This document shows, piece by piece, positions 2,945-32,000 of a stretch of 32,000 nucleotides of DNA (positions are counted from its first letter, which is position 1; each line of letters begins with the position of its first letter). The stretch comes from Candidatus Binatia bacterium (GTDB taxonomy: Bacteria; Desulfobacterota; Binatia; UBA9968), in NCBI GenBank assembly GCA_041483675.1, contig JBGPGE010000030.1:1-32000 (forward strand). Direction: 5' to 3'. The notes beneath the pieces were generated by a model. It was not told where the DNA came from. It did no database searches and saw nothing but the letters and a program-made list of their open reading frames with translations. The position numbers and the translations under genes are program-made.

Positions 2945-4021
2945 TCAGCGGCTTGTTGGGCGGCTCATGCGACGACGCTCCGCAAGTACGGATGCTGCCA
3001 CGCCGCCTGCCAGGACCGAGAGTATCAAAGCCAGCAAGTACAAGTTGAAGTGCTTCCCGAGGGCGAGCTTCAGCCATTCGGCAAGCAGCATCTTCACGCC
3101 CACTATCATAAGGACCAGTGCGAGCGAGACCTTCAGGTATCGGAACTTCTTCACCAGGCCGGCCAATGCGAAGTAGAGTGATCGCAGACCGAGAATCGCG
3201 AACACGTTGCTGGTGAACACCAAGAACGGGTCGCTCGTGATGGCGAAGATGGCCGGGATCGAGTCGACAGCAAAGATCAGATCGGTCGTCTCGACCATGA
3301 CGAGCGCCAGCGCCAGAGGCGTGAGGAGCAAGGTACCCGGCTGCGCCTTGTTCACGACCTCATCTGGGACCGTGGGTGCACCCGGGACCTCGCTCTCGTA
3401 CGACGCGGGTGCACCGGCGCGAACGACAAAGTGCTCGCCGTGGAACCTGGCGGTCACCGGGAACAAGCGGCGCGTCAACCGAACGACGATGTTCTTGTTC
3501 GGATCGGTGTGATCCGTCTTGAGAAAGAGCATCTTGATAGCCGTCAGGATCAGGAACACGGCGAAGAGGTACAGAATCCAGTGGAACTCTGCGATCAGCT
3601 TCGCTCCGATACCGATCATCGCACCGCGCAGGAGCAGAGCGCCGAGGATGCCCCAGAACAGCACGCGGTGCTGGTAGAGTGGCGGCACCGCGAAAAAGCC
3701 GAAGATCATCGCGATCACGAAGATGTTGTCCATGCTGAGGGACTTCTCGACGACGTAGCCTGTCAGGTACTTCTCCGTTGCCGTTGCGCCGCCGTTCGTC
3801 AGCCCATCGACCGCGTCCACCGTGGTGCCAAGGCCGAACCACTGGCCGTCGTAGGCGAAGTACACGAATACGGAGAATGACAACCCCATGCCTAGCCACA
3901 CGGCCGACCAAGCGAGCGTCTCCTTAACGCTGACCACATGGGCTTTGCGGTGAAAGACCCCCAGGTCCAATGCCAGCATCAGTAGGACAAACGCTATGAA
4001 TGCTATCCAGACCCACATCAC
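2945..4021 (-). CDS. TerC family integral membrane protein (paralogue 2, with two insertions relative to paralogue 1)
   Basis: 358 aa carrying the same TerC motifs (LALDLGVFHRKAH, EKSLSMDNIFV, ETTDLIFAVDSIPAIFAI, SNVFAILGLRSLYF). The start is GTG 4021 or ATG 4018, with GGAGG upstream. Confidence 0.9.
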   Translation of the reverse strand: MMWVWIAFIAFVLLMLALDLGVFHRKAHVVSVKETLAWSAVWLGMGLSFSVFVYFAYDGQWFGLGTTVDAVDGLTNGGATATEKYLTGYVVEKSLSMDNIFVIAMIFGFFAVPPLYQHRVLFWGILGALLLRGAMIGIGAKLIAEFHWILYLFAVFLILTAIKMLFLKTDHTDPNKNIVVRLTRRLFPVTARFHGEHFVVRAGAPASYESEVPGAPTVPDEVVNKAQPGTLLLTPLALALVMVETTDLIFAVDSIPAIFAITSDPFLVFTSNVFAILGLRSLYFALAGLVKKFRYLKVSLALVLMIVGVKMLLAEWLKLALGKHFNLYLLALILSVLAGGVAASVLAERRRMSRPTSR

Positions 4022-6399: not shown

Positions 6400-7017
6400 A
6401 TGAAGATCGCGAAAGAGGGTTATCCATTTATTCTGCCCGTGGCCGGGTTGGCGCTGCTGGCGTTTCTCGTCGGCTGGGCGTGGATCGGGTGGTGTTTTGC
6501 GCTGATCGCGTTTGCGTTTCTGGGCTTTTTCCGCGATCCTGAACGTATTGTGCCGCAGGGCGAAGGGCTGGTCGTATCGCCGGCGGACGGGAGGGTGATG
6601 GCGACTCGGGATTTGAGAGGCGAAGGGTTGCGAACCAGGGTCAGTATCTTTTTGTCGCCTCTCGATGTCCATATCAACCGCTCGCCGGTCGAAGGAAAGG
6701 TCGAGGAGGTTCGCTATCAGGCGGGCAAATTCTTCGCCGCCTATAAGGAAGCGGCCTCCGAGGCCAACGAGCGCAACGCCGTCACGGTGGTTGACAAGCA
6801 GGGCAGGAGATTCGGAGCGGTGCAGATCGCCGGCGTTGTGGCGCGGCGCATCGTCTGCAAAACTAAGGAAGGGGATTGGCTGGAGCGCGGCCAGAGATTC
6901 GGATTGATCAGGTTTGGCTCCAGGGTTGATTTGTATTTGCCCGACGGAACGCGAGTGGAAGTGGCGGAAGGGCAGCACGTGACGGGCGGCGAGACGATAA
7001 TCGCGAGGATGACATGA
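6400..7017 (+). CDS. psd: phosphatidylserine decarboxylase proenzyme (short, archaetidylserine-decarboxylase-like form)
   Basis: 205 aa with an N-terminal TM. It shows ..LSPLDVHINRSPVEG.. and the self-cleavage-type motif FGSRVDLYLP. Confidence 0.9.
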   Translation: MKIAKEGYPFILPVAGLALLAFLVGWAWIGWCFALIAFAFLGFFRDPERIVPQGEGLVVSPADGRVMATRDLRGEGLRTRVSIFLSPLDVHINRSPVEGKVEEVRYQAGKFFAAYKEAASEANERNAVTVVDKQGRRFGAVQIAGVVARRIVCKTKEGDWLERGQRFGLIRFGSRVDLYLPDGTRVEVAEGQHVTGGETIIARMT

Positions 7018-7868
7018 GCGGACTCAATGAACCGCAAGACGACGGACCGGCGAGGCCGAAGGTCCGGCTGCTGCCGAGGAGAACCGCGCCGCGCGTTCCG
7101 CTCCGGCAGAGAGTGCGCTCGGCCCAGCTCCAGCGGGGCGTCTATCTCATTCCCAGCCTGTTTACGACTGGGAACCTGATCTGCGGCTTTTTCTCCATCA
7201 TCTCGACTTTTAACGGCGCGTACATGCGCGCGGCGGTGTTTATCATCCTGGCTCATCTGATGGACTGCCTGGACGGCTATGTGGCGCGGCTGACCAAGAC
7301 CACGAGCCAGTTCGGCATCGAACTCGATTCTCTGGCGGATCTGGTTTCCTTCGGCGTCGCGCCGGCGATCCTGGCCTATTACTGGGCGCTCGTCCCCTGG
7401 AGCACCTGGGGCTGGATGGCCGCCTGTCTTTTCGTCGTCTGCGGCGCTCTTCGATTGGCCCGCTTCAACGTCCAGGCCCGGACCGTGGAGAAAACTCATT
7501 TCGTCGGCCTTCCCATTCCAGCGGCGGCGGAGATGATCGCGGCGACCGTGGTGATGTATTATTATCTGCACGGCGAGGCGGCGGGCAACAAGCCGCTGAT
7601 TTTGCTGCTGGTCATCTACCTCCTGGCGGGCTTGATGGTGAGCAACATTCAATATTCGAGTTTCAAGCATCTCTCGCTCAAGAAAAGGCATCCGATCTGG
7701 ATCTTGATCTCCGCGATCCTGTCGATCAAGGTGACGATCCTCTATCCGGAGGTCGTGTTTTTTACGGTGTTTGTCCTGTATACTTTATCGGGTCCTCTCT
7801 TATGGTTCCTGAGCGCCTATAAACGGCGGCGGGCGAAGAGAGGGGAACTCGCAGACGCTCTGCCCTAG
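7014..7868 (+). CDS. pssA: CDP-diacylglycerol--serine O-phosphatidyltransferase
   Basis: The CDP-alcohol phosphatidyltransferase motif DCLDGYVARLTKTTSQFGIELDSLADLVSFGVAPA is present. The start overlaps the psd stop (ATGA). Confidence 0.9.
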   Translation: MSGLNEPQDDGPARPKVRLLPRRTAPRVPLRQRVRSAQLQRGVYLIPSLFTTGNLICGFFSIISTFNGAYMRAAVFIILAHLMDCLDGYVARLTKTTSQFGIELDSLADLVSFGVAPAILAYYWALVPWSTWGWMAACLFVVCGALRLARFNVQARTVEKTHFVGLPIPAAAEMIAATVVMYYYLHGEAAGNKPLILLLVIYLLAGLMVSNIQYSSFKHLSLKKRHPIWILISAILSIKVTILYPEVVFFTVFVLYTLSGPLLWFLSAYKRRRAKRGELADALP

Positions 7869-13440: not shown

Positions 13441-14238
13441 TTAGTGCACTTTCGATAGCCGCTCAATAAGCCTCCTATACACGGTCGAAAGTTGTCCATC
13501 CAACTCAAATTGATCGCGTGCGTGGGCCGTTTCGAGAACAAGCCTAATGGAGGTACAGAGTGCGAGGGATTGGGCGCGTGGGTCATTTCGGGGATTCGGA
13601 TGGATAAGGTCCGGTTGATCTCGGAACAGTCCCAGCCCAAAAAACCCGCCGTGGGCCGCGCTTGATAACGTGGCATAGTAACGAGCCATCTCCGGGGGCA
13701 GGAGCTTATCCGCAGCTTCCTGGGGCCGGTGGTAGTACTCGGGCGCATACCAGTAGCCTGATACGCGCTCCTTGAAGATGAAACGTCGCGCTTTCTCCTG
13801 GTCAGATCCGCTCAACCGTGCAATACCGGAGTCGATTTGTCGCCGGCAATCCTTGTGCAATTCATCATTGGCGTCAGTTGAACGGAGCGTCACTTTAAGA
13901 AAAAAGTGTGTGCAACGGAACCCGCGTATTTCGGCTTCTTCGTGGAGCTCGACGATAATGGCCGTGCTCAGCAGTAGGTCTAAGAGCGTGCGCAAGATTG
14001 GCGCAGAACAAGATACCCATCCTGTAGCACACAGCGCTAGAAGCGCCTGATGAAAGGCTATTATGTCGGCCTCGAGACGGTACAACGCGCCACCCGCAAG
14101 GGGATATGGGTGGTTACCGTTGAATTGTTCGACGATCGCAGCGTTGACTGCTACCGCGTATGAGGATGCAGCGTCGTGAAGCCGCACAAGCGCTTCGTCG
14201 ATAAGTGGTTTAGCCCGCTCTATTATCTTCCCGGTCAT
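13441..14238 (-). CDS. hypothetical all-helical protein (265 aa), possibly DUF5677-like
   Basis: ATG 14238 (GAGG 7 nt upstream) is preferred over 14247. The surrounding 13281..14347 is visibly more AT-rich than the rest of the window. The segments ALLALCATGW..APILRTLLDLLL and LSSAAHGG recall DUF5677, from memory. RLVLETAH is an Rx6H string. Confidence 0.55.
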   Translation of the reverse strand: MTGKIIERAKPLIDEALVRLHDAASSYAVAVNAAIVEQFNGNHPYPLAGGALYRLEADIIAFHQALLALCATGWVSCSAPILRTLLDLLLSTAIIVELHEEAEIRGFRCTHFFLKVTLRSTDANDELHKDCRRQIDSGIARLSGSDQEKARRFIFKERVSGYWYAPEYYHRPQEAADKLLPPEMARYYATLSSAAHGGFFGLGLFRDQPDLIHPNPRNDPRAQSLALCTSIRLVLETAHARDQFELDGQLSTVYRRLIERLSKVH

Positions 14239-14347
14239 GCGCCTCATTCATTCGGTAAACTTTGAGACTCTGGCGATTGTCATGCGTCCCTAAGTTGTTG
14301 TCAAGGCAGCTTGGCAACCGCTGTCAGTTTAAGGTAGAAAACAAATC

Positions 14348-21490: not shown

Positions 21491-22879
21491 TTATCGCCTG
21501 ACCGGCGAGCGTTGAAAACTCCGCCGGGTGATTTCATAGGGGACCGGATCGGCGCCGGTTTCGAGATCGCTCCACAGATCCTCGGCGATCTCGACGGAAC
21601 GCGGAGGCTCGACGCCGTCTAAGAAAAACACGAACTCGCCTCTAAGCTGCAAGACCAAATGGCGCCGGCTGTCGCGCGGCGTGAGCAGAAAATCGCCGCT
21701 TCCCGGCCCGGCGGAGAGGGAAGTGTCGTGGCGGCGCTCCAGGGCCCGGCGGTAGCTGCGAAAAAATTCCGCCGCCTCTTGGCGATTCTCCCAAGCCGTG
21801 ATCCACGCGAGGGCGATTCCATTGTCTTGTCGAAACAGCAGCAGGCTGTCGCCGGCCCAGCCCTTTGCGGCGCCGGCGGCTTCGTCTCGCGACAGACTTC
21901 TCCCGAGGAGAACCTGTGTGAGGAATTCTCCCAACGTCTCCTCCATGAGCTTGTTGTCGCCCAACTGCCTGAGCAGGTTCCACGGGGTAATCCTGACCGG
22001 CTCCTCTCGCTTCCCGTAGTACTTCTCGGGATGAAGAATCTGTTTGGTCGAAGCGGGGGGATTGGCATAAAGGCTGTTCACTCCCTCCCAGCCCCGCGCG
22101 GAAAAAGCCCAGGAGACGAACCGCGTACCCTCCATCGTCGAGAACACCGCCTGCCGGCGAAGCGGCTCCGGGAGATAGGCAAGATCTCTCTCCAGCTGGG
22201 AGGCGGACCGGGAAACGGCTTGCGCCGCGTCGAGGATTCGTTGCCTGTGGGTTCCGTAAGGCTCCTGAAGGAGCGCGAGACTCGCGAGCACCGCGTCTCC
22301 CTTCCGAAGCGCGCGCTGGGCCAGGGCGGCGTCTTCCGTAGGCTTGCGCACGAGCTTTTCGCCTGTGCGGAAATGCTGTTCTTGCAGCAGGCGTATCAAG
22401 CCATGCACTTGAACGAGCTGTCGGTCCGTCTCTCTATCCCGGCTTCCGGGGAAGGCGAGCAGCGGAGGTTCCGGTTTTATTCCCTGCCGCGGCATAAGGA
22501 GTGTTTTCTGTTGAGCATCCGGGAAGGCGCCCGTCAAGGCCGTCTCCAGCTCGGCCAATGCCTTGGAAAAATCGGTCCCCTCCGGCAGCAGCCCCAGCCG
22601 GGCGAAGAGCGCGCCACGGAGATCGAGGCTCTCTTTTCCCTGTTCTTCCAGGATGGAGCTCTCAGCCAGCGCGTGAAGTTCCTTCGGGTCGCGCGCCGCT
22701 ACAGCCACGTCTCGCTGAAAAGCGAGGCCTCGGAGACGGGCCACCGCTTGTTTAAGCTCGTCGAATGACAGCGAGCGTGCCGTGGCGATAGAGCGCGGCT
22801 CCAGCAGCTGGCAGCCGAAGATGAGCGGCAGCGCAGCGAGCCAAAGCATGCGCGCAAGAGATTTGATCCTTCGCGTCAT
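21491..22879 (-). CDS. hypothetical lipoprotein (462 aa), co-operonic with rlpA
   Basis: The signal/lipobox is LAALPLIFGC. Its start overlaps the rlpA stop (TAATG). It contains ..VHGLIRLLQEQHF.. and ..TKQILHPEKYY... Confidence 0.75.
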   Translation of the reverse strand: MTRRIKSLARMLWLAALPLIFGCQLLEPRSIATARSLSFDELKQAVARLRGLAFQRDVAVAARDPKELHALAESSILEEQGKESLDLRGALFARLGLLPEGTDFSKALAELETALTGAFPDAQQKTLLMPRQGIKPEPPLLAFPGSRDRETDRQLVQVHGLIRLLQEQHFRTGEKLVRKPTEDAALAQRALRKGDAVLASLALLQEPYGTHRQRILDAAQAVSRSASQLERDLAYLPEPLRRQAVFSTMEGTRFVSWAFSARGWEGVNSLYANPPASTKQILHPEKYYGKREEPVRITPWNLLRQLGDNKLMEETLGEFLTQVLLGRSLSRDEAAGAAKGWAGDSLLLFRQDNGIALAWITAWENRQEAAEFFRSYRRALERRHDTSLSAGPGSGDFLLTPRDSRRHLVLQLRGEFVFFLDGVEPPRSVEIAEDLWSDLETGADPVPYEITRRSFQRSPVRR

Positions 22880-25084: not shown

Positions 25085-25669
25085 ATGATCGGCAAACTCA
25101 GCGGCACCCTCACGGACAAGGCCCCCACGGAAATCACCATCGACGTCGGCGGCGTCGGCTACCAGATTTTTATTCCGCTGAGCGTTTTTTACCGCCTGCC
25201 CGACCTCGGGGCGCGAGTCAGCCTCTACACGCACACTCACGTTCGCGAAGACGCGCTGCAGCTCTTCGGCTTTCTCGGGCCGGAGGAAAAGCAGGTCTTT
25301 CTGCTGCTGAACGGCGTCTCCGGCATCGGGCCGAAGCTGGCGGTCAATATCCTCTCCGGCATCCCGGCGGAGGATCTCGCCAAGGCGCTGAGAGAGGGCG
25401 ACCAGCCGCGGCTCCTCTCCATTCCCGGCGTGGGGAGGAAACTCGCCGAGCGCATGATCGTCGAATTGCGCGACAAGTTTCTCTCGCTGCCGGCGGCGGA
25501 AATCGCGCAGCGGGACGGCACGCAGTTGACGCGGGACGCGGTGTCGGCGCTGGTCAACCTGGGCTATCGCCGGGCCGACGCGGAAAAGAGCGTGCGCGAA
25601 ATCGCGCGCAACGGCGAGGGCAGCCTGGGAGAGGTGCTGAAAGAGGCGCTCCGCAGGCTCAGTCAATGA
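25085..25669 (+). CDS. ruvA: Holliday junction DNA helicase subunit RuvA
   Basis: MIGKLSGTL..IDVGGVGYQIFIP.., then ..REDALQLFGF.. and the HhH motif GVSGIGPKLA. Confidence 0.95.
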   Translation: MIGKLSGTLTDKAPTEITIDVGGVGYQIFIPLSVFYRLPDLGARVSLYTHTHVREDALQLFGFLGPEEKQVFLLLNGVSGIGPKLAVNILSGIPAEDLAKALREGDQPRLLSIPGVGRKLAERMIVELRDKFLSLPAAEIAQRDGTQLTRDAVSALVNLGYRRADAEKSVREIARNGEGSLGEVLKEALRRLSQ

Positions 25670-25753
25670 AAAATGTAAATTGCAAAATGAAAAATGAAAA
25701 GTGAAGATTTAAAATTTGCAATTTGCATTTTACACTTTGCATTTTGCACTTGG
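25666..25753. repeat. AT-rich hairpin with 7-nt periodic arms (tgcaaaa family)
   Basis: One arm reads tgcaaaa/tgaaaaa/tgaaaag and faces tttgcaa/tttgcat/tttacac/tttgcat/tttgcac. It fills the ruvA-ruvB spacer. Confidence 0.65.
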
Positions 25754-25761
25754 CCTTAACT

Positions 25762-26787
25762 ATGGACCCCCAGCAAATCACGCCCAAGCAGACCGACGAG
25801 GACCTCAGTTACGAGGTCAATCTCCGGCCGCGCGGCTTCGACGAATACGTCGGCCAGGAGCAGGTCAAGGAGAATCTCAAAGTCGCCATCGCCGCGGCGC
25901 GCGGGCGTAACGACGTGCTCGACCATATTCTCTTTCATGGCCCGCCGGGGCTGGGAAAAACCTCGCTCGCCTATATCATCGCGCGCGAGATGGGCGTCAA
26001 CATCAAGGCGACCTCCGGTCCGGTCGTGGAGCGCGCCGGAGATCTTGCGGCGTTGCTGACCAACCTGGAAGAGGGGGACATCCTCTTCATCGACGAGATC
26101 CACCGGCTCAACCACGTGGTCGAAGAGGTCCTCTACCCCGCGATGGAAGATTACCAGATCGATCTCATGATCGGCCAGGGGCCGTCGGCGCGGTCGATCA
26201 AGCTCGATCTTAAACGGTTCACGCTGGTAGGCGCGACCACGCGCTCCGGACTTCTCACCTCGCCGCTGCGCAACCGCTTTGGAGCGACCTTCCGTCTGGA
26301 CTTCTATTCGACCGAAGCGCTGGCACAGATTCTTACCCGCTCGGCTGCCATCCTCGCCGTGGCCGGAGATCGGGAGGGGCTGGCGGAGATTGCCCGGCGG
26401 TCGCGCGGCACGCCCCGGATCGCCAACCGGCTGCTGCGCCGCGTGCGGGACTACGCGCAGGTGAAAGCCAGCGGCCGGATCACCAAAACAGTTACGGAAG
26501 AGGCGCTCAAGATGCTCGAAGTGGACCCGATGGGGTTCGACAAGATGGACACGTTGCTGCTGCTCACGCTGATCGATAAGTTTGCCGGCGGTCCGGTGGG
26601 GGTGGAGACGCTCGCGGCGGCTATCGGCGAGGAGAAGGACACGATCGAGGATGTCTACGAGCCGTTTCTAATTCAGGCGGGTTTTCTCAACCGCACCTCG
26701 CGCGGCCGGGTGGCGACGCCGCTCGCCTATGAGCACTTCGGCCGCAAGCCGGGAGAGACGCCTAAGAAACAGCCGACGCTGTTTTGA
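25762..26787 (+). CDS. ruvB: Holliday junction DNA helicase RuvB
   Basis: I used ATG 25762, because the track start at 25723 reads through the repeat. [13 protein letters not shown].., the Walker A motif ..[11 protein letters not shown].., ..LFIDEIHRL.. and ..[16 protein letters not shown].. are present. Confidence 0.95.
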
Positions 26788-26814
26788 AAGCCGTTCAAGA
26801 GTTCGAAGGCTCAA

Positions 26815-26925
26815 GGGAGAAAACGCAATGCAAATTGCAAAATGAAAACTGCAAAATGCAAAATCGAAGAAGGCCGGGATCTTAACTTTTGCAATTTTCA
26901 TTTTCCATTTTTCATTTTGCGGTTC
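26815..26925. repeat. AT-rich hairpin with 7-nt periodic arms (tgcaaaa family)
   Basis: One arm reads tgcaaat/tgcaaaa/tgaaaac/tgcaaaa/tgcaaaa. After the loop ..ggccgggatc.. the other arm reads cttttgc/aattttc/attttcc/atttttc/attttgc. Confidence 0.65.
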
Positions 26926-26977
26926 CCTTTCTATTTTCCCCTGGCAACCTGCCTCCTTATCAGCGCAATCTTAACCC

Positions 26978-27006
26978 TTGTTCTTTACCTGTTTCGACGG
27001 TAAAAT
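26978..27006 (+). promoter_or_regulatory. possible sigma70-like promoter of the kinase/REC-LpxC operon
   Basis: TTGTTC-N17-TAAAAT lies about 30 nt upstream of the first candidate start (TTG 27035). Confidence 0.3.
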
Positions 27007-27034
27007 CGCATAGTTTCACTAAGGCGGCGCCGAG

Positions 27035-29281
27035 TTGCGCCGCTGCAGGGTATTTTCGTTGGACACGGATACGAATATAGAAGACAGCCTCAGGCTTGAA
27101 GAGGCGAAGCGGAGAAAGCGAGAGGGGATCGTGATCCTCATCACCACCCTGATGGTGGTGCTCTTTGCCTTTTTCGAGGCCGATCTTCCGGAAAGCCCGA
27201 CCGACAGCTCCCTCACCAAAAACATCGGCTTCTTTCTGCTGGTCAACATCAACATCATCCTGCTCGTCCTGCTCATCTTTCTCGTTGTCCGCAATCTGGT
27301 AAAACTCATCTTCGAGCGGAAAAAACGCATCCTCGGCTCCCGGCTCCGCGTCCGGCTGGTGATCGCGTTCGTGTCGCTGTCGCTGGTTCCGACGCTGCTG
27401 CTGTTTGTGATCGCAGGGGGCATTGTGACGCGCTCGTTCGACCGGTGGTTCGACGTGCAGGTCGAAAACGCGCTGCAAGGGTCGTTGGAGATCGGGCAAG
27501 CGTACTATCAAAACTCGGCGAACAACGCCCTCTTCTACGCGCGCCAGCTAAGCCGGCGGCTGACCGAGGAGCGGCTGCTGGATTTCCGCAAGACGTCGGA
27601 CCTGAAGGAATTTATCCAGTCGAAGCAGAAGGAGTACAACCTCGGAACCATCGAAATATTTTCTTCCAACCAGCAGCTTCAAGTCGTGGCGTTCAATGAG
27701 CAGGTGCCGACCGGTGTCACGATCAAGCCCGACGGCGACTTCCTCACGCGGGCGCTCAGAGGGCTGGAGGTGACCACCACGCAGCCGTTCGGCGAAGGAG
27801 ACATCATTCGCGGCGGCGTGCCGGTTTACAGTGCCGACCGGAGAATCCTCGGCGTGGTCGTCGTCGATTACTTCGTGCCGAAGAGCATCACCAGCCGCGC
27901 CCTGGAGATATCGCGCTCCTATGAGCAGTACAAGCATCTCACGGCCCTCAAGAAGCCGATCAAAAACACCTATATTCTGACTCTGCTTCTTATCACCCTG
28001 GTCATTATCTTTTCCGCGACCTGGTTCGGGCTCTATCTCGCGAAAGGCATCACCGTGCCGATTCAACGACTGGCGGAGGGAACCCACGAGGTGGCGCACG
28101 GGAACTGGGACTACCGGATCGAGGCGAGCGGCGACGACGAGATCGGGACACTGGTCGATTCTTTCAACCAGATGACGCGGGACCTGAAACAGATCAACGC
28201 GGAGGTCGTGCGTAGAGGGCGCTACATGGAGACGTTGCTGGCCAACATCACCGCGGGCGTCATCTCGATCGATCCCGCGGGCGGAATCACGACGATGAAC
28301 AAAGAGGCCGCCCAGATGCTGGGTGTCAAGGCCGAGGAGGCGCTCGGAAAAAGTTACGGCGAGGTGTTTCAGCCGGAGCACCTCCGCGTGATGAGCGAGA
28401 TCATGGAGCAGGTCAAGGCGGGCGCCAGCGTGGAGCGCGAGGTCAGGATCCCGCTCCCCGACCAGATCCTCACGGCGATGGTGTCGGCGGCGACGTTGCG
28501 GGGGGAGGAAGACAATATCCTCGGCGTCATGGTTTTTCTCGAAGACATTACCCAGATCCAGAAGGTCCAGCGGATGGAGGCCTGGCGCGAGGTCGCGCGC
28601 CGCATCGCCCACGAGATCAAGAATCCGCTGACGCCGATCCAGCTCTCGGCGGAGCGGCTGCGCCGGCGCTACGCGAAGCTCCTGGACGGGGACGGAGCGA
28701 TTCTCGACAAATGCACCTCGACGATCATCAAGCAGGTGGAGGAGTTGAAAAACCTGGTCAACGAGTTTTCCCAGTTCGCGCGCCTGCCCGCGGCGGAGCC
28801 GAGTCCGAACGATCTCAACGAGATCGTGAAGGAGGCGCTTTTTCTCTTCAAGGAAGGCCACAAGGGAATCAACTTTCAGTTTCAGCAGCGCGAGTTGCCG
28901 TTGGTCGAGCTAGACCGCGACCAGATGAAGCGGGTGTTGATCAACCTGCTCGACAACGCGGTGGCCGCGGTGGGCGAGAAGGGGGAGATCAAGATATCGA
29001 CCTCGGTGAACCCCGTGTCGGGAGTGGTGTTGCTGGAGGTGGCCGACGACGGCAGCGGCCTGGCGCCGGAAGTGCGGGCAAGGATTTTCGAGCCCTATTT
29101 TTCGACCAAAAAGGAAGGGACCGGGCTCGGCCTGGCCATTGTGAGCGCCATCGTGGCCGACCACCGCGGCCATATCCGCGTGCGTCCCAACGAGCCGAAG
29201 GGAACCCGGTTCATCATCGAGCTGCCCGTGCGCGAGTACGCGAGCGTCGAGGACCGCAAGCGGAAAGCCGTTTATTCGTAA
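27035..29281 (+). CDS. ntrY: NtrY-like sensor histidine kinase (multi-TM, HAMP, PAS, HisKA, HATPase_c)
   Basis: There are three N-terminal TM segments, a ~170-aa extracytoplasmic region and a fourth TM. HAMP follows (PIQRLAEGTHEVAHGNWDYRI..DEIGTLVDSFNQM), then PAS (AGVISIDPAGGITTMNKEAAQMLG). The H-box RRIAHEIKNPLTPIQLSAERLRR is NtrY-type. The N and G boxes are NLLDNAV and DDGSGL..GTGLGLAIV. The start codon is uncertain (TTG 27035, TTG 27059 or GTG 27130). Confidence 0.85.
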   Translation: MRRCRVFSLDTDTNIEDSLRLEEAKRRKREGIVILITTLMVVLFAFFEADLPESPTDSSLTKNIGFFLLVNINIILLVLLIFLVVRNLVKLIFERKKRILGSRLRVRLVIAFVSLSLVPTLLLFVIAGGIVTRSFDRWFDVQVENALQGSLEIGQAYYQNSANNALFYARQLSRRLTEERLLDFRKTSDLKEFIQSKQKEYNLGTIEIFSSNQQLQVVAFNEQVPTGVTIKPDGDFLTRALRGLEVTTTQPFGEGDIIRGGVPVYSADRRILGVVVVDYFVPKSITSRALEISRSYEQYKHLTALKKPIKNTYILTLLLITLVIIFSATWFGLYLAKGITVPIQRLAEGTHEVAHGNWDYRIEASGDDEIGTLVDSFNQMTRDLKQINAEVVRRGRYMETLLANITAGVISIDPAGGITTMNKEAAQMLGVKAEEALGKSYGEVFQPEHLRVMSEIMEQVKAGASVEREVRIPLPDQILTAMVSAATLRGEEDNILGVMVFLEDITQIQKVQRMEAWREVARRIAHEIKNPLTPIQLSAERLRRRYAKLLDGDGAILDKCTSTIIKQVEELKNLVNEFSQFARLPAAEPSPNDLNEIVKEALFLFKEGHKGINFQFQQRELPLVELDRDQMKRVLINLLDNAVAAVGEKGEIKISTSVNPVSGVVLLEVADDGSGLAPEVRARIFEPYFSTKKEGTGLGLAIVSAIVADHRGHIRVRPNEPKGTRFIIELPVREYASVEDRKRKAVYS

Positions 29282-29308
29282 GCTTGGACGTGACAACCTG
29301 GAGATAGG

Positions 29309-30598
29309 GTGAAAGGTAACGACAAAACAATCCTCGTGGTGGACGACGAGGCCGGTGTCCGCGAGTCGATTCGGGAGAGTCTCACCGACGAGGGCTATCG
29401 GGTCATCGACACGGCCGACGGGAGACGCGTCCTTGAGCTGATCCGCAGCGAGCGTCCGCGGCTGGTGCTGCTCGACATCTGGATGCCCGAAGTGGACGGG
29501 ATCGGGCTGCTCAAAGAGATCAAGAAGGCGGAGCCGGAGGTGCATGTCGTCATGATCTCCGGCCACGGCAACATCCACACCGCCGTGACGGCGACCAAGC
29601 TGGGAGCGTTCGACTTCATCGAAAAACCGTTGTCGTTAGAGGGGCTGCTGGTGACCGTGCGTCGCGCTCTGGGCGAGGCTGTATCCGTCAGGGGGAACGG
29701 CAGCAAGTTAAAGGCGGTGAAGGCGAGGCGGTCTCGTCAGGGATCGTTGTTGCAGCCCGATGCGGCGGGAGAGCTCAGACAAAAAACGCTCAAGAAGAGC
29801 GTGGTTTTTTCGGGGCAGGGTCTCCATTCCGGAATCAAGACGGGCGTGGTGCTTCATCCCATGCCGCCCAACAGCGGCATTGTTTTCAGCGGCATCTCCG
29901 CCGACGCCACGGTTCCGGCGCGCCTGGATTACGTCGCCTCGACCGGCTACGCGACCTCGCTCAGCGGCAAGGGATTTGTCGTCGGCACCGTCGAGCATTT
30001 TCTGGCCGTCCTGCACAGCTACGGCATCGGCAATCTGCTCGTCAAAATGCAGGGCGAGATCCCGATCATGGACGGCTCCGCGATCGAGTTCTGCCGCTTG
30101 ATCGAGGAGGCCGGCATCGAAGAGCAGGACGAGGAGTGGTCCGAGATCGTGATCGATCGCGCCTATTCGGTCGGCGACCATACCGGCGAATCTATTCGCG
30201 TGGAACCGGCCGCGACGTTCGGTGTGCGCTACATCCTGAACTATCCCCCGCCGGTGGGGATGCAGGAGCACACGTATATGTCTCACGGGCCCGAGTTCTT
30301 CAAAGAAGAGATCGCGCCGGCGCGGACGTTCGGTTTTCTCAAGGACATCGAGCAGCTGGAAAAGCTCGGGCTGGTGAACGGGGGAAGGCTGAGCAATTGC
30401 ATCTTGATCGACAACGACCGTGTCATCAACACCGATCTACGCTTCCCCGACGAGTTCGCCCGCCACAAGATTCTCGACATCATCGGCGACTTCTATCTGC
30501 TGGGCCGTCCGATCCGCGGCATGGTCACGGCCCGCATGACCGGCCACACGGACAATATCGCTCTGCTCAGGGAAGTCAGAAAAGGCATGGGGATCTAA
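29309..30598 (+). CDS. lpxC: fusion protein: response-regulator receiver domain + UDP-3-O-acyl-N-acetylglucosamine deacetylase
   Basis: A single 429-aa frame with GTG 29309 after GGAGAT. Residues 1-122 form the REC domain (DD12-13, D56 in VLLDIWMP, S84 in MISGHG, K106 in IEKP). Residues ~157-429 form LpxC, aligning by eye to E. coli LpxC from RQKTLKK (KQRTLKR). It retains GLHSG, TVEHF, IPIMDGSA, ARTFGF, EFARHKILDIIGDF and TGHTDN. Confidence 0.85.
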   Translation: MKGNDKTILVVDDEAGVRESIRESLTDEGYRVIDTADGRRVLELIRSERPRLVLLDIWMPEVDGIGLLKEIKKAEPEVHVVMISGHGNIHTAVTATKLGAFDFIEKPLSLEGLLVTVRRALGEAVSVRGNGSKLKAVKARRSRQGSLLQPDAAGELRQKTLKKSVVFSGQGLHSGIKTGVVLHPMPPNSGIVFSGISADATVPARLDYVASTGYATSLSGKGFVVGTVEHFLAVLHSYGIGNLLVKMQGEIPIMDGSAIEFCRLIEEAGIEEQDEEWSEIVIDRAYSVGDHTGESIRVEPAATFGVRYILNYPPPVGMQEHTYMSHGPEFFKEEIAPARTFGFLKDIEQLEKLGLVNGGRLSNCILIDNDRVINTDLRFPDEFARHKILDIIGDFYLLGRPIRGMVTARMTGHTDNIALLREVRKGMGI

Positions 30599-30605
30599 AG
30601 TACGA

Positions 30606-30688
30606 CGCAGTGCAAAATGCAAAGTGCAAATTTTAAAGTGCAGAAAGGGAAGCGGGAGGCAATTTTGACTTTTGCATTTTGCAGTTTT
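30606..30688. repeat. AT-rich hairpin with 7-nt periodic arms (tgcaaaa family)
   Basis: One arm reads tgcaaaa/tgcaaag/tgcaaat/tttaaag/tgcagaa. After the loop ..gggaagcgggagg.. the other arm reads attttga/cttttgc/attttgc/agttttc. Confidence 0.65.
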
Positions 30689-30737
30689 CATGGTTCGATC
30701 TTCCTCACCATGACCCTGAGCGTAAGTCGAATGGGTC
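30689..30737 (+). mobile_element. solo copy of the ~48-nt miniature element
   Basis: The sequence catggttcgatcttcctcaccatgaccctgagcgtaagtcgaatgggtc matches 18329..18376 apart from a few substitutions. Confidence 0.55.
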
Positions 30738-30758
30738 ATTTTGCAATGTATTAGACTA

Positions 30759-31205
30759 ATGGGTTCTTCACAGCAATTTCCCCGGCTCTTTACGGTCAAC
30801 GAGGCGAACGATCTGCTGCCGGAGTTGCGGCCGCTGATCCAGCGCGTATCTCATCACCTGGAGGGGTTGCGGGCGAAGAGCGAGACGGTGATTCGTGGCG
30901 AGCGGCTCTCGCCGGACAGCCCGGAGCTGATGAGGCGACTGCAAGAAGACACGGCGATCGCACGCATGATCCTCGAAGTCAAAGGGCTGGTGGAAGAGAT
31001 CAACAGCTACGGCTGCGTGTGCAAAGGGATCGAGGACGGGCTGGTCGATTTTCCCTGCCTGCTCGGCGGCGAGATCGTCTTTCTCTGCTGGCGCTACGAC
31101 GAGGAAAGCGTGGCCCACTGGCACCGCATCGAAGACGGCTTCGCCGGACGCAAGGCGCTGCTGGAGGCCGACGACGACAGCGGCGGCAACGTCTCGTACC
31201 ACTAA
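30759..31205 (+). CDS. DUF2203 domain protein
   Basis: I used ATG 30759. LFTVNEANDLLPELRPLI.., ..CKGIEDGLVDFP..GEIVFLCWRYDEESVAHWH..DGFAGRK match my memory of the DUF2203 pattern. Confidence 0.8.
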   Translation: MGSSQQFPRLFTVNEANDLLPELRPLIQRVSHHLEGLRAKSETVIRGERLSPDSPELMRRLQEDTAIARMILEVKGLVEEINSYGCVCKGIEDGLVDFPCLLGGEIVFLCWRYDEESVAHWHRIEDGFAGRKALLEADDDSGGNVSYH

Positions 31206-31233
31206 CAGGCCGGTGAAAAAGGCTCATCTCTAC

Positions 31234-31312
31234 GGAGTGGAGTAATGGAGTGATGGGGTAATGCATTTAGAACCCAATACTCCAATACTCCCATACTCAA
31301 ACACCTCACTCC
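31234..31312. repeat. hairpin-type repeat with 8-nt periodic arms (GC-richer variant)
   Basis: One arm reads agtaatgg/agtgatgg/ggtaatgc and faces aatactcc/aatactcc/catactca. The arms are complementary in motif, but pairing was not verified by folding. Confidence 0.45.
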
Positions 31313-32000
31313 GCCGGGCCGATCTTTCAGCGCAAATCAAAGAAGAGGCGCAGAGGTTGGGCTTCGCGCTGGTTGGCATCTCGCCGGTGAAGCTTGCTTC
31401 GCACGAGGAGTCTTTCGCTCAGTGGCTGAGAAAAGGGCTGGGTGGCGAGCTGGGCTACATGCAGCGCACGGAGGAGCTGCGCCGCGATCCGAAAAAGCTC
31501 GTTCCCTGGGCGGTTTCCGTGATCTCAGTGGGGATGAACTATCTCACGCCGTTGCCGAGACCTGAGAGTCCCGAAGAGACACAAGGTTGGATCTCGCGCT
31601 ACGCGTGGGGCGATGACTATCACGACGTTGTCAAACAAAAGCTCGATCTGTTGCTGGAGAAAATCAGGGAGCTTTATCCGAACTCTGTCGAGGGGCGGGC
31701 GTTCGTCGATTCGGGGCCCGTCCTAGAGAGAGGCATCGCGGGCGTCGCCGGTATCGGCTGGATCGGCAAAAACACTCAGCTCATCTCGCCGCGCAAAGGC
31801 TCGTGGTTTTTTCTCGGCGAGCTGTTTCTCAGCATCGAATTGGCGTACGACCGTCCCATCAAGGACCGCTGCGGCAAGTGCGATCTCTGTCTCAAAGCCT
31901 GCCCCACCGGCGCCTTCGTCGGCCCGTACGTGCTCGATGCGCGCCGTTGCATCTCGTACTTAACGATTGAACTCAAAGGCCCCATCCCGCGCCACTTGCG
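31261..32000 (+). CDS. queG: epoxyqueuosine reductase QueG (3'-truncated by window end)
   Basis: The frame is open from ATG 31261 to the window edge, so it is not in the ORF track. ..IKEEAQRLGFALVGISP.., ..WISRYAWGDDYH.., ..VDSGPVLERGIAGVAGIGWIGKNTQLI.. and the 4Fe-4S motif ..CGKCDLCLKACPTGA.. are present. Confidence 0.85.
   Translation, partial: MHLEPNTPILPYSNTSLRRADLSAQIKEEAQRLGFALVGISPVKLASHEESFAQWLRKGLGGELGYMQRTEELRRDPKKLVPWAVSVISVGMNYLTPLPRPESPEETQGWISRYAWGDDYHDVVKQKLDLLLEKIRELYPNSVEGRAFVDSGPVLERGIAGVAGIGWIGKNTQLISPRKGSWFFLGELFLSIELAYDRPIKDRCGKCDLCLKACPTGAFVGPYVLDARRCISYLTIELKGPIPRHL

Follow-up and report, generated by a model that had tools for sequence, protein, structure and literature searches.

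Can LpxC, an antibiotic target whose reaction is the committed and most tightly controlled step in lipid A synthesis, be placed under the direct control of a two-component system? The question is raised by a locus in a 32,000-nucleotide stretch of DNA from a Candidatus Binatia bacterium (contig JBGPGE010000030.1; the whole stretch is called the window). There, a gene for an NtrY-type sensor histidine kinase is followed by a gene that encodes, in one protein, an NtrX-type receiver domain (REC) and LpxC. NtrY usually partners with NtrX, a protein of REC-AAA+-HTH architecture, and LpxC of E. coli is controlled mainly by regulated proteolysis (FtsH/LapB). Judged by the sequence comparisons described here, the fusion architecture is old and widespread. 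It seems likely, with a probability of roughly 0.6, that kinase and fusion make up a two-component pathway of their own, in which LpxC itself would be the output, controlled directly by phosphorylation.

Receiver and LpxC in a single protein

The fusion protein (Table 1) matches the Pfam Response_reg profile over residues 8-117 (1.3e-29; 103 bits against a cut-off of 30.2) and the Pfam LpxC profile (PF03331) over residues 158-423 (1.2e-81; 274.6 bits against a cut-off of 27). The PF03331 alignment spans profile positions 1-266 of 268, and the NCBIfam lpxC equivalog TIGR00325 scores 240.7 bits, above its cut-off of 187.25. The motifs TVEH (E229/H230), TFGF (T340/F341), RHKILDIIGD (H386/K387/D390/D394) and TGH (H413) are present. 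The zinc ligands H230, H386 and D390 correspond to E. coli H79, H238 and D242, and the catalytic residues E229, H413, D394, T340 and K387 to E. coli E78, H265, D246, T191 and K239. None of these zinc and catalytic residues varies among 129 fusions, and each is at least 95% conserved in the fusion and the stand-alone groups alike. Alignment of the fusion to P. aeruginosa LpxC structures gives an E-value of about 1e-50. The initial annotation had recognized a full-length LpxC from the motifs TVEH, RHKILDIIGD and TGH, and the profile matches bear this out. By all criteria of sequence and fold the C-terminal part is an LpxC, with predicted deacetylase activity.

The N-terminal part is a receiver whose phospho-acceptor is D56 (codon 29474-29476), with D12, D13, S84 and K106 completing the set of residues for phospho-chemistry. 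An alignment of 26 homologues, drawn from the best 120 clusters described below, shows no variation in these five or in the LpxC catalytic residues, and D12, D56 and K106 stay invariant once longer relatives of about 50% identity are included. Among receiver-bearing NCBIfam models the best match of the fusion is NtrX (NF051870; 135 bits, residues 7-142), the closest solved relatives of the receiver are the Brucella NtrX receiver structures 4d6x and 5m7n, and identity to the receivers of unfused NtrX proteins is 48-60%. The receiver is therefore complete and of NtrX type, as first annotated. The whole fusion does not reach the NtrX equivalog (135 bits against the 600-bit cut-off of NF051870), and a profile search found no AAA+ domain of the sigma-54-activator type in the window protein. 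The protein thus derives from NtrX yet counts as no NtrX, as it lacks AAA+ and HTH and scores far below the cut-off.

The basic linker between the two domains had been put at about 35 residues. It has 36, its basic character stands, and it is in addition predicted to be disordered, since AlphaFold2 (AF2) gives a per-residue confidence (pLDDT) below 50 at residues 125-154. In homologues the linker is 31-40 aa long, with a net charge of +3 to +11 and a variable sequence. The AF2 model used was built from a 129-sequence alignment (a shallow alignment of 26 sequences gave a pLDDT of 52 and was discarded). It has a mean pLDDT of 85.5 and a predicted TM-score (pTM) of 0.82, and REC and LpxC each have a pLDDT of about 90. 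The LpxC part of the model superimposes on LpxC of P. aeruginosa, A. aeolicus and E. coli with target-normalised TM-scores of 0.83-0.95 and rmsd values of 1.4-2.2 Å. A fold search of the PDB returned the LpxC fold only, and no solved chain that spans both REC and LpxC.

A frameshift or assembly error that joined separate ntrX-like and lpxC genes could in principle produce such a protein, and the initial annotation had named this as a point to check. A search over 5.8 billion proteins, from which the best 120 clusters were taken (71-97% identity to the window fusion), found the two Pfam domains joined in a single protein, 408-442 aa long, in 120 of 120 clusters. The clusters come from JGI, ENA, NCBI and Logan assemblies, and those with names are LpxC of "Candidatus Binatia bacterium" (most) or "Deltaproteobacteria bacterium" metagenome-assembled genomes (MAGs). 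Binatia is a class within the candidate phylum Binatota. Assemblies ridden with frameshifts can distort gene calls at this locus, as locus L085 (ENA ERZ25039586 contig_25414) demonstrates, but there the error splits the fusion rather than making one. The frame in the window is uninterrupted, and 17 species-representative genomes share its REC-LpxC junction, as do over 120 clusters drawn from four independent data sources. An artefact is therefore ruled out for practical purposes. In L085 itself the synteny is like that of the window and ruvB, kinase and fusion are each fragmented, likely through indel errors of a long-read assembly; the breakage creates a false stand-alone LpxC entry (P0167) in protein databases.

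Both domains also bear the mark of selection. The window fusion was compared codon by codon with six homologous genes, synonymous sites being largely saturated. The proportion of nonsynonymous differences (pN) is 0.10-0.19 in REC and LpxC (0.11-0.19 in REC), the proportion of synonymous differences (pS) is 0.57-0.80, and pN in the linker is 0.33-0.63. Because pN lies far below pS in REC and LpxC and is high in the linker, both halves are held by strong purifying selection and the linker is nearly unconstrained.

Relatives of the fusion and the genes beside them

Architectural relatives were sought among 1.84 billion representatives at 50% identity, and the best 150 were examined. Among these, 15 representative clusters encode a long form of 650-740 aa with the architecture REC-AAA+-LpxC (Sigma54_activat/AAA_lid_14). 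Whole NtrX is found fused to LpxC, as REC-AAA+-HTH-LpxC, in proteins of about 730 aa. Other relatives have the AAA+ domain partly deleted (P0128, P0129), retain HTH_8 between REC and LpxC (P0133, 491 aa) or carry a spacer of about 116 aa (P0125). Short REC-LpxC forms have spacers of about 27 to about 70 aa and identities to the window protein down to 32%. A search seeded with the long form P0122 returned the long architecture in all of the best 120 clusters, a few of them truncated at the N-terminus. These are labelled "NtrX" by JGI and "LpxC" of Desulfobacterota/Thermodesulfobacteriota MAGs by NCBI. The window holds the fully reduced form of an NtrX-LpxC fusion, of which a whole-NtrX version and every intermediate exist.

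The HTH region was traced with a hidden Markov model (HMM) of the Fis-type HTH found at the C-terminus of unfused NtrX, built from 56 such proteins. In long forms whose spacer is 76 aa or more, this HMM matches the segment ahead of LpxC (E-values of 1e-9 to 2e-20), and it also matches P0133 and P0125. It has no match in the Nitrospinota long forms, in the short forms or in the window linker (E = 8.7), and on the last value the notion that the linker is a degenerate remnant of HTH/AAA+ was rejected. In a neighbour-joining tree of 150 LpxC domains, midpoint-rooted and without support values, all fusion LpxCs fall into one clade apart from the stand-alone LpxCs. Because long and short forms interleave within this clade, a single origin of the fusion followed by several internal losses of AAA+/HTH is provisionally favoured. 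The initial annotation held that the enzyme has replaced the DNA-binding output of NtrX. The output is now LpxC, but this was probably no simple swap: whole NtrX would have been fused first and AAA+/HTH lost later.

The long forms attach a complete transcription factor, REC-AAA+-HTH, to LpxC and could report pathway flux; published NtrX-type regulators, moreover, act on lpxC expression. Information might then flow in the opposite direction, with the LpxC domain sensing the pool of its substrate or product and modulating the receiver and kinase (in long forms, NtrX) as a feedback sensor. Such a reversal is very improbable. The short form in the window has no output besides LpxC, the strictly conserved catalytic machinery would be needless in a pure ligand sensor, and a receiver domain is normally the input to the domain on its C-terminal side.

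The separate clade also bears on whether the fusion is the main LpxC of its host. Fusion LpxC domains are only 36-43% identical to stand-alone LpxCs and carry five clade-specific substitutions (G179, Y238, K246, C262 and L366), as might be expected if an ordinary lpxC were also present in the genome and REC-LpxC were a conditional second copy or an enzyme for a variant substrate. This is rather unlikely. The fusion LpxC scores above the curated lpxC equivalog cut-off and retains every residue that is at least 95% conserved among stand-alone LpxCs. NCBI and JGI label the fusion as the LpxC of these MAGs, and the 32 kb window has no further REC, AAA+ or LpxC coding region. Five apparent stand-alone LpxCs lie in the fusion clade and were considered as unfused housekeeping orthologues; P0145, P0162 and P0167 prove to be truncated or frameshifted fusions, the others being P0191 and P0203.

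The kinase gene was read from a TTG codon, the earliest start in frame, and the real start is uncertain by a few codons. Its product contains NtrY_N (35.4 bits against a cut-off of 23.2), HAMP, PAS, HisKA and HATPase_c, all above the Pfam cut-offs. Four hydrophobic transmembrane (TM) segments (residues 28-52, 59-95, 104-135 and 308-337) enclose an extracytoplasmic loop of about 170 aa between the third and fourth. The H-box HEIKNPL includes His526 (codon 28610-28612), and the N, G1, F and G2 boxes are all present. It is an intact NtrY-type sensor kinase, in agreement with the four-TM kinase first described. The fusion gene lies on the same strand after a gap of 27 nt, its start at the 28th base past the kinase stop having been correctly placed from the outset.

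Immediately upstream of the fusion, a homologous NtrY-type kinase is encoded in 11 of 15 judgeable short-form loci (L001-L008, L011, L012 and L017) and in two long-form loci (L083 and L084), a pairing that the initial annotation had named as a point to check. This adjacency is kept though the other flanking genes differ completely. Kinase pairing is common, not universal. Kinases that partner unfused NtrX have sensor halves homologous to that of the window kinase (HKN scores of 94-260 bits), so the two sets of kinases probably sense the same kind of signal.

Separate lpxC and ntrYX genes are also found side by side. Species-representative genomes were scanned, with loci classified by open reading frame (ORF) calling and phmmer and candidates ordered by how closely they resemble the fusion. 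In 24 species-level genomes, spread over several orders and phyla, unfused ntrY-ntrX is directly preceded by a stand-alone lpxC. Two further genomes have only a partial lpxC beside ntrY-ntrX. These genomes belong to Syntrophales, Desulfobacterales, Geobacteraceae, Desulfuromonas, three Acidobacteriota and one MAG labelled Limnocylindria. The ranking favours the retrieval of lpxC-ntrYX loci; even so, taken as a lower bound, adjacency in roughly 26 of some 600 candidate stretches greatly exceeds what chance would give. Because the unfused order is lpxC, ntrY, ntrX and that of the fusion is ntrY, ntrX::lpxC, the fusion is no simple read-through. A tandem duplication of the lpxC-ntrY-ntrX unit would bring ntrX beside lpxC.

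The C-terminus of LpxC distinguishes the two arrangements. In all 22 fusions compared (17 short, 5 long) the last residue falls at -1 to +3 relative to the C-terminus of the window protein, at the edge of the LpxC core, and all 24 stand-alone LpxCs next to ntrYX continue for another 9-73 aa. Several of the stand-alone tails (L020-L082, Desulfobacterales group) end in short, non-polar, degron-like motifs, for example ...KSLAI, ...KALAI or ...SLAIS. In E. coli the C-terminal end of LpxC is an FtsH degron (PMC3333781, PMC12444477), and in other groups LpxC has no degron and its regulation differs (PMC12444477). Loss of the tail and gain of the receiver would fit an exchange of one regulatory device for another.

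Proposed control of LpxC by the receiver

In the favoured pathway the kinase would phosphorylate D56 on an envelope or periplasmic cue, and the phosphorylation state of REC would alter the output of LpxC, whether its activity, its assembly or its stability. The simplest design would be like that of CheB, in which the unphosphorylated receiver occludes the active site: REC would dock on LpxC, hinder it in one state and free it in the other. Alternatively, dimerisation or stability would depend on phosphorylation. Control by the receiver would take over from the control by the C-terminal tail that is lost in all fusions. Phosphorylated REC would perhaps more likely restrain LpxC than stimulate it, because NtrYX lowers lpxC expression in Rhodobacter and Caulobacter (PMC7240162, PMC12444477).

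Published work ties two-component systems to lpxC at the level of transcription. In D. vulgaris, lpxC is the single DNA-affinity-purified-chip (DAP-chip) target of the response regulator DVU2934, which is encoded in an operon with the kinase DVU2931 (Rajeev et al. 2011, PMC3333781). The same study reports orthologues of DVU2934 from Geobacter and Acidobacterium and, in S. fumaroxidans, an lpxC gene immediately ahead of the orthologous operon (PMC3333781). That synteny matches the lpxC-ntrY-ntrX order of the 24 genomes, the orthology of DVU2934 to the NtrX genes of these loci being taken from the published taxon list and synteny rather than from an alignment. DVU2934 is a response regulator dedicated to lpxC, as the receiver of the window fusion would be to LpxC; it differs in acting on transcription, by DNA binding, and as a separate protein. 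In R. sphaeroides, deletion of ntrYX raises lpxC mRNA 8.8-fold and lipopolysaccharide about two-fold, with no NtrX site at lpxC (Lemmer et al. 2020, PMC7240162). NtrY/NtrX of Rhodobacter sphaeroides, Caulobacter crescentus and Brucella share with the window pair the kinase layout (NtrY_N with four TM segments, HAMP, PAS, HisKA, HATPase), the receiver nearest NtrX and a functional tie to lpxC and the cell envelope. They differ in that NtrX is a REC-AAA+-HTH protein that binds DNA at many genes, with an effect on lpxC reported as indirect, whereas the output in the window is the enzyme itself.

A 2025 review of lipid A regulation mentions NtrYX solely as one pleiotropic influence on lpxC transcription, uses neither "fusion" nor "response regulator" anywhere, and calls LpxC regulation outside Enterobacteria poorly understood (PMC12444477). 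No description of a REC-LpxC or NtrX-LpxC fusion was found in the searchable literature, and nothing relevant on lipid A of Binatota. As far as the literature can be searched, the architecture is present in automated annotation yet undescribed and uncharacterised. The initial annotation knew of no characterised example, and this stands for the fusion; two-component control of lpxC transcription has precedents (PMC3333781, PMC7240162, PMC12444477).

The fusion belongs with the response regulators whose output is an enzyme, and its two-component family has established ties to lpxC. CheB (REC-methylesterase), PleD and WspR (REC-GGDEF) and RpfG (REC-HD-GYP) likewise have an N-terminal receiver, a flexible linker and a C-terminal enzyme. 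Their outputs are signalling enzymes, whereas that of REC-LpxC, known here from its sequence, is an essential enzyme of envelope biosynthesis. The FtsH/LapB/YejM-dependent proteolysis of E. coli LpxC through its C-terminal degron concerns the same enzyme and the same need, the balance of lipid A and phospholipid, but the fusions lack the C-terminal tail and carry an N-terminal receiver. The bifunctional LpxC/FabZ fusion (NF009667, PRK13188) resembles the window protein in having LpxC as one domain of a larger protein, and its model matches window residues 157-426. There, however, the partner is a C-terminal metabolic enzyme, FabZ, and not an N-terminal signalling domain. The window protein is no member of NF009667, with 208 bits against a cut-off of 465.

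We infer phospho-gating of LpxC from this body of comparisons, and several points weigh against it. REC has no fusion-specific constrained positions relative to the receivers of unfused NtrX, and no new interface is detectable by that route; on the LpxC side the search for positions that could mark an interface gave just the five clade-specific substitutions. The long, disordered and poorly conserved linker argues against rigid allosteric coupling. In its favour, a pTM of 0.82 in a chain of which LpxC makes up 64% suggests a defined placement of REC against LpxC, a putative contact read from pTM. The effect of REC on catalysis and the transfer of phosphate from the kinase to D56 are predictions. 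No kinase is found in the 1.2-6 kb examined upstream of four short forms (L009, L010, L013 and L015) and of three Nitrospinota long forms (L016, L018 and L019), and the tree behind the proposed origin is the midpoint-rooted one without support values.

Some of the same observations would suit a fusion that serves only for tethering or co-expression. The fusion could fix stoichiometry or recruit LpxC to the membrane, through docking of REC on the kinase or through the basic linker, and phosphorylation would then occur without gating, REC being a localisation handle or a phosphate sink. The substrate of LpxC is lipid-linked and is met at the membrane surface, the linker is basic as well as long, disordered and poorly conserved, REC lacks fusion-specific constrained positions, and some fusions lack an adjoining kinase. 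A passive tether would have no need of the five phospho-chemistry residues that are invariant in the 26 Binatia-type homologues, three of which (D12, D56 and K106) are invariant with the long forms included. The conserved pairing with a kinase and the loss of the tail in 22 of 22 fusions, which suggests an exchange of regulatory device, likewise speak against it. A mere tether is accordingly unlikely, if the least unlikely of the alternatives to phosphorylation control.

Surroundings of the pair and its possible place in LpxC regulation

The window is ordinary chromosome. Its genes include ilvC, psd, pssA, leuA, leuB, asd, gcvT, a major facilitator superfamily (MFS) transporter, HpcH, two genes of the metallo-β-lactamase (MBL) fold, rlpA, yebC and ruvCAB; the kinase, the fusion and DUF2203 come next (Table 1). 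The order yebC-ruvC-ruvA-ruvB-(DUF2905)-kinase-REC-LpxC-DUF2203-queG is shared, at 77-78% identity, by a 174 kb JGI contig and GCA_035495775.1. A scan for promoters and terminators over 25600-31400 gave nothing above background.

Table 1. Coordinates of the kinase, the fusion and associated features in the window.
Feature	Position	Strand	Remarks
NtrY-type sensor histidine kinase gene	27035..29281	+	748 aa; ORF list, Pfam and NCBIfam profiles
Shine-Dalgarno GGAGA	29300..29304	+	4 nt ahead of the fusion GTG, read from sequence
REC-LpxC fusion gene	29309..30598	+	429 aa, GTG start, one uninterrupted frame
REC domain, NtrX-type, residues 6-121	29324..29671	+	Pfam/NCBIfam profiles, homologue alignment
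Linker, residues 122-157, 36 aa	29672..29779	+	Basic: 8 K/R against 3 D/E
LpxC domain (UDP-3-O-acyl-GlcNAc deacetylase), residues 158-429 and stop	29780..30598	+	Profiles, alignment, fold
DUF2203 gene	30741..31205	+	PF09969, 6.4e-33; start codon uncertain
TGCAAAA-heptamer inverted-repeat element	25667-25748		ruvA/ruvB gap
TGCAAAA-heptamer inverted-repeat element	26829..26921	.	ruvB/kinase gap, upstream of kinase
TGCAAAA-heptamer inverted-repeat element	30611..30690	.	Fusion/DUF2203 gap, just past fusion stop

The DUF2203 gene lies directly downstream of the fusion in six other loci (L001-L003 and L005-L007), mostly 4-20 nt away and overlapping in L006. It is limited to Binatia-type loci and is absent beside long forms and other short forms. 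DUF2203 is possibly co-transcribed with the fusion as part of an operon. Comparison of DUF2203 with solved structures found no relative.

Three gaps between co-oriented genes hold inverted arrays of the heptamer TGCAAAA, with 4-5 units per arm. Matches with at most two mismatches number 22 against 0.63 expected, a count seen in 0 of 100 shuffles. The elements are hairpins like those of repetitive extragenic palindromes (REP-like), and two copies flank the kinase-fusion pair. In relatives a DUF2905 gene of 70 aa lies between ruvB and the kinase (L001 7490-7702, L002 7456-7668). The corresponding interval of the window, 26788-27034, has no DUF2905 ORF and is filled by a heptamer repeat element instead.

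At one of the Nitrospinota long-form loci, L016 (Nitrospinaceae MAG JAJDBF010000038.1, 2430-9716), a REC-AAA+-LpxC protein without HTH and without an adjoining kinase is encoded among envelope genes, with rlpA, greA and trmB upstream and purN, lolA and rseP downstream. When dcw and lpx clusters were sought beside the kinase-less fusions L010, L015, L016 and L019, envelope neighbours (rlpA, lolA, rseP) were found only at this Nitrospinaceae locus. Elsewhere in the window, psd and a pssA-like CDP-alcohol phosphatidyltransferase gene (6400-7868), both of phospholipid synthesis, are embedded between ilvC and leuA/leuB. Two paralogous genes for TerC-family membrane proteins (470-1417 and 2945-4021, both on the minus strand) lie less than 3 kb apart. 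Two long ORFs, 21491-22879 (minus strand, 462 aa) and 13441-14247 (minus strand, 268 aa), have no Pfam match at E <= 0.001.

Taken as a comparative series, the loci lead from lpxC beside ntrYX, through a whole NtrX-LpxC fusion, to the minimal REC-LpxC of the window. The tie between NtrYX and LpxC is independently backed, because stand-alone lpxC adjoins unfused ntrY-ntrX in 24 genomes. The series joins the pleiotropic envelope phenotypes of alphaproteobacterial NtrYX to the single-target regulator of Desulfovibrio and suggests that the family may exist to set the output of LpxC; if it does, NtrX and LpxC would be predicted to interact in culturable organisms such as Geobacter, Syntrophus and Acidobacterium. 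The fusion also offers a Rosetta-stone argument for NtrYX-type systems as regulators of LpxC more generally. It is conceivable, though on balance doubtful, that the NtrYX family is at root a system for lipid A (LpxC) homeostasis, in which NtrX would act physically on LpxC even when unfused and encoded beside it, and that the only LpxC of Binatota would be phospho-switched. On that reading the pair would be the first two-component system to control an essential envelope-biosynthetic enzyme directly by covalent attachment, in place of degron-based proteolysis.

In the uncultured bacteria with this locus, REC-LpxC and its sensor kinase would let an envelope signal reach LpxC directly, at the post-translational level, and the receiver suggests control by phosphorylation instead of regulated proteolysis of the E. 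coli kind.

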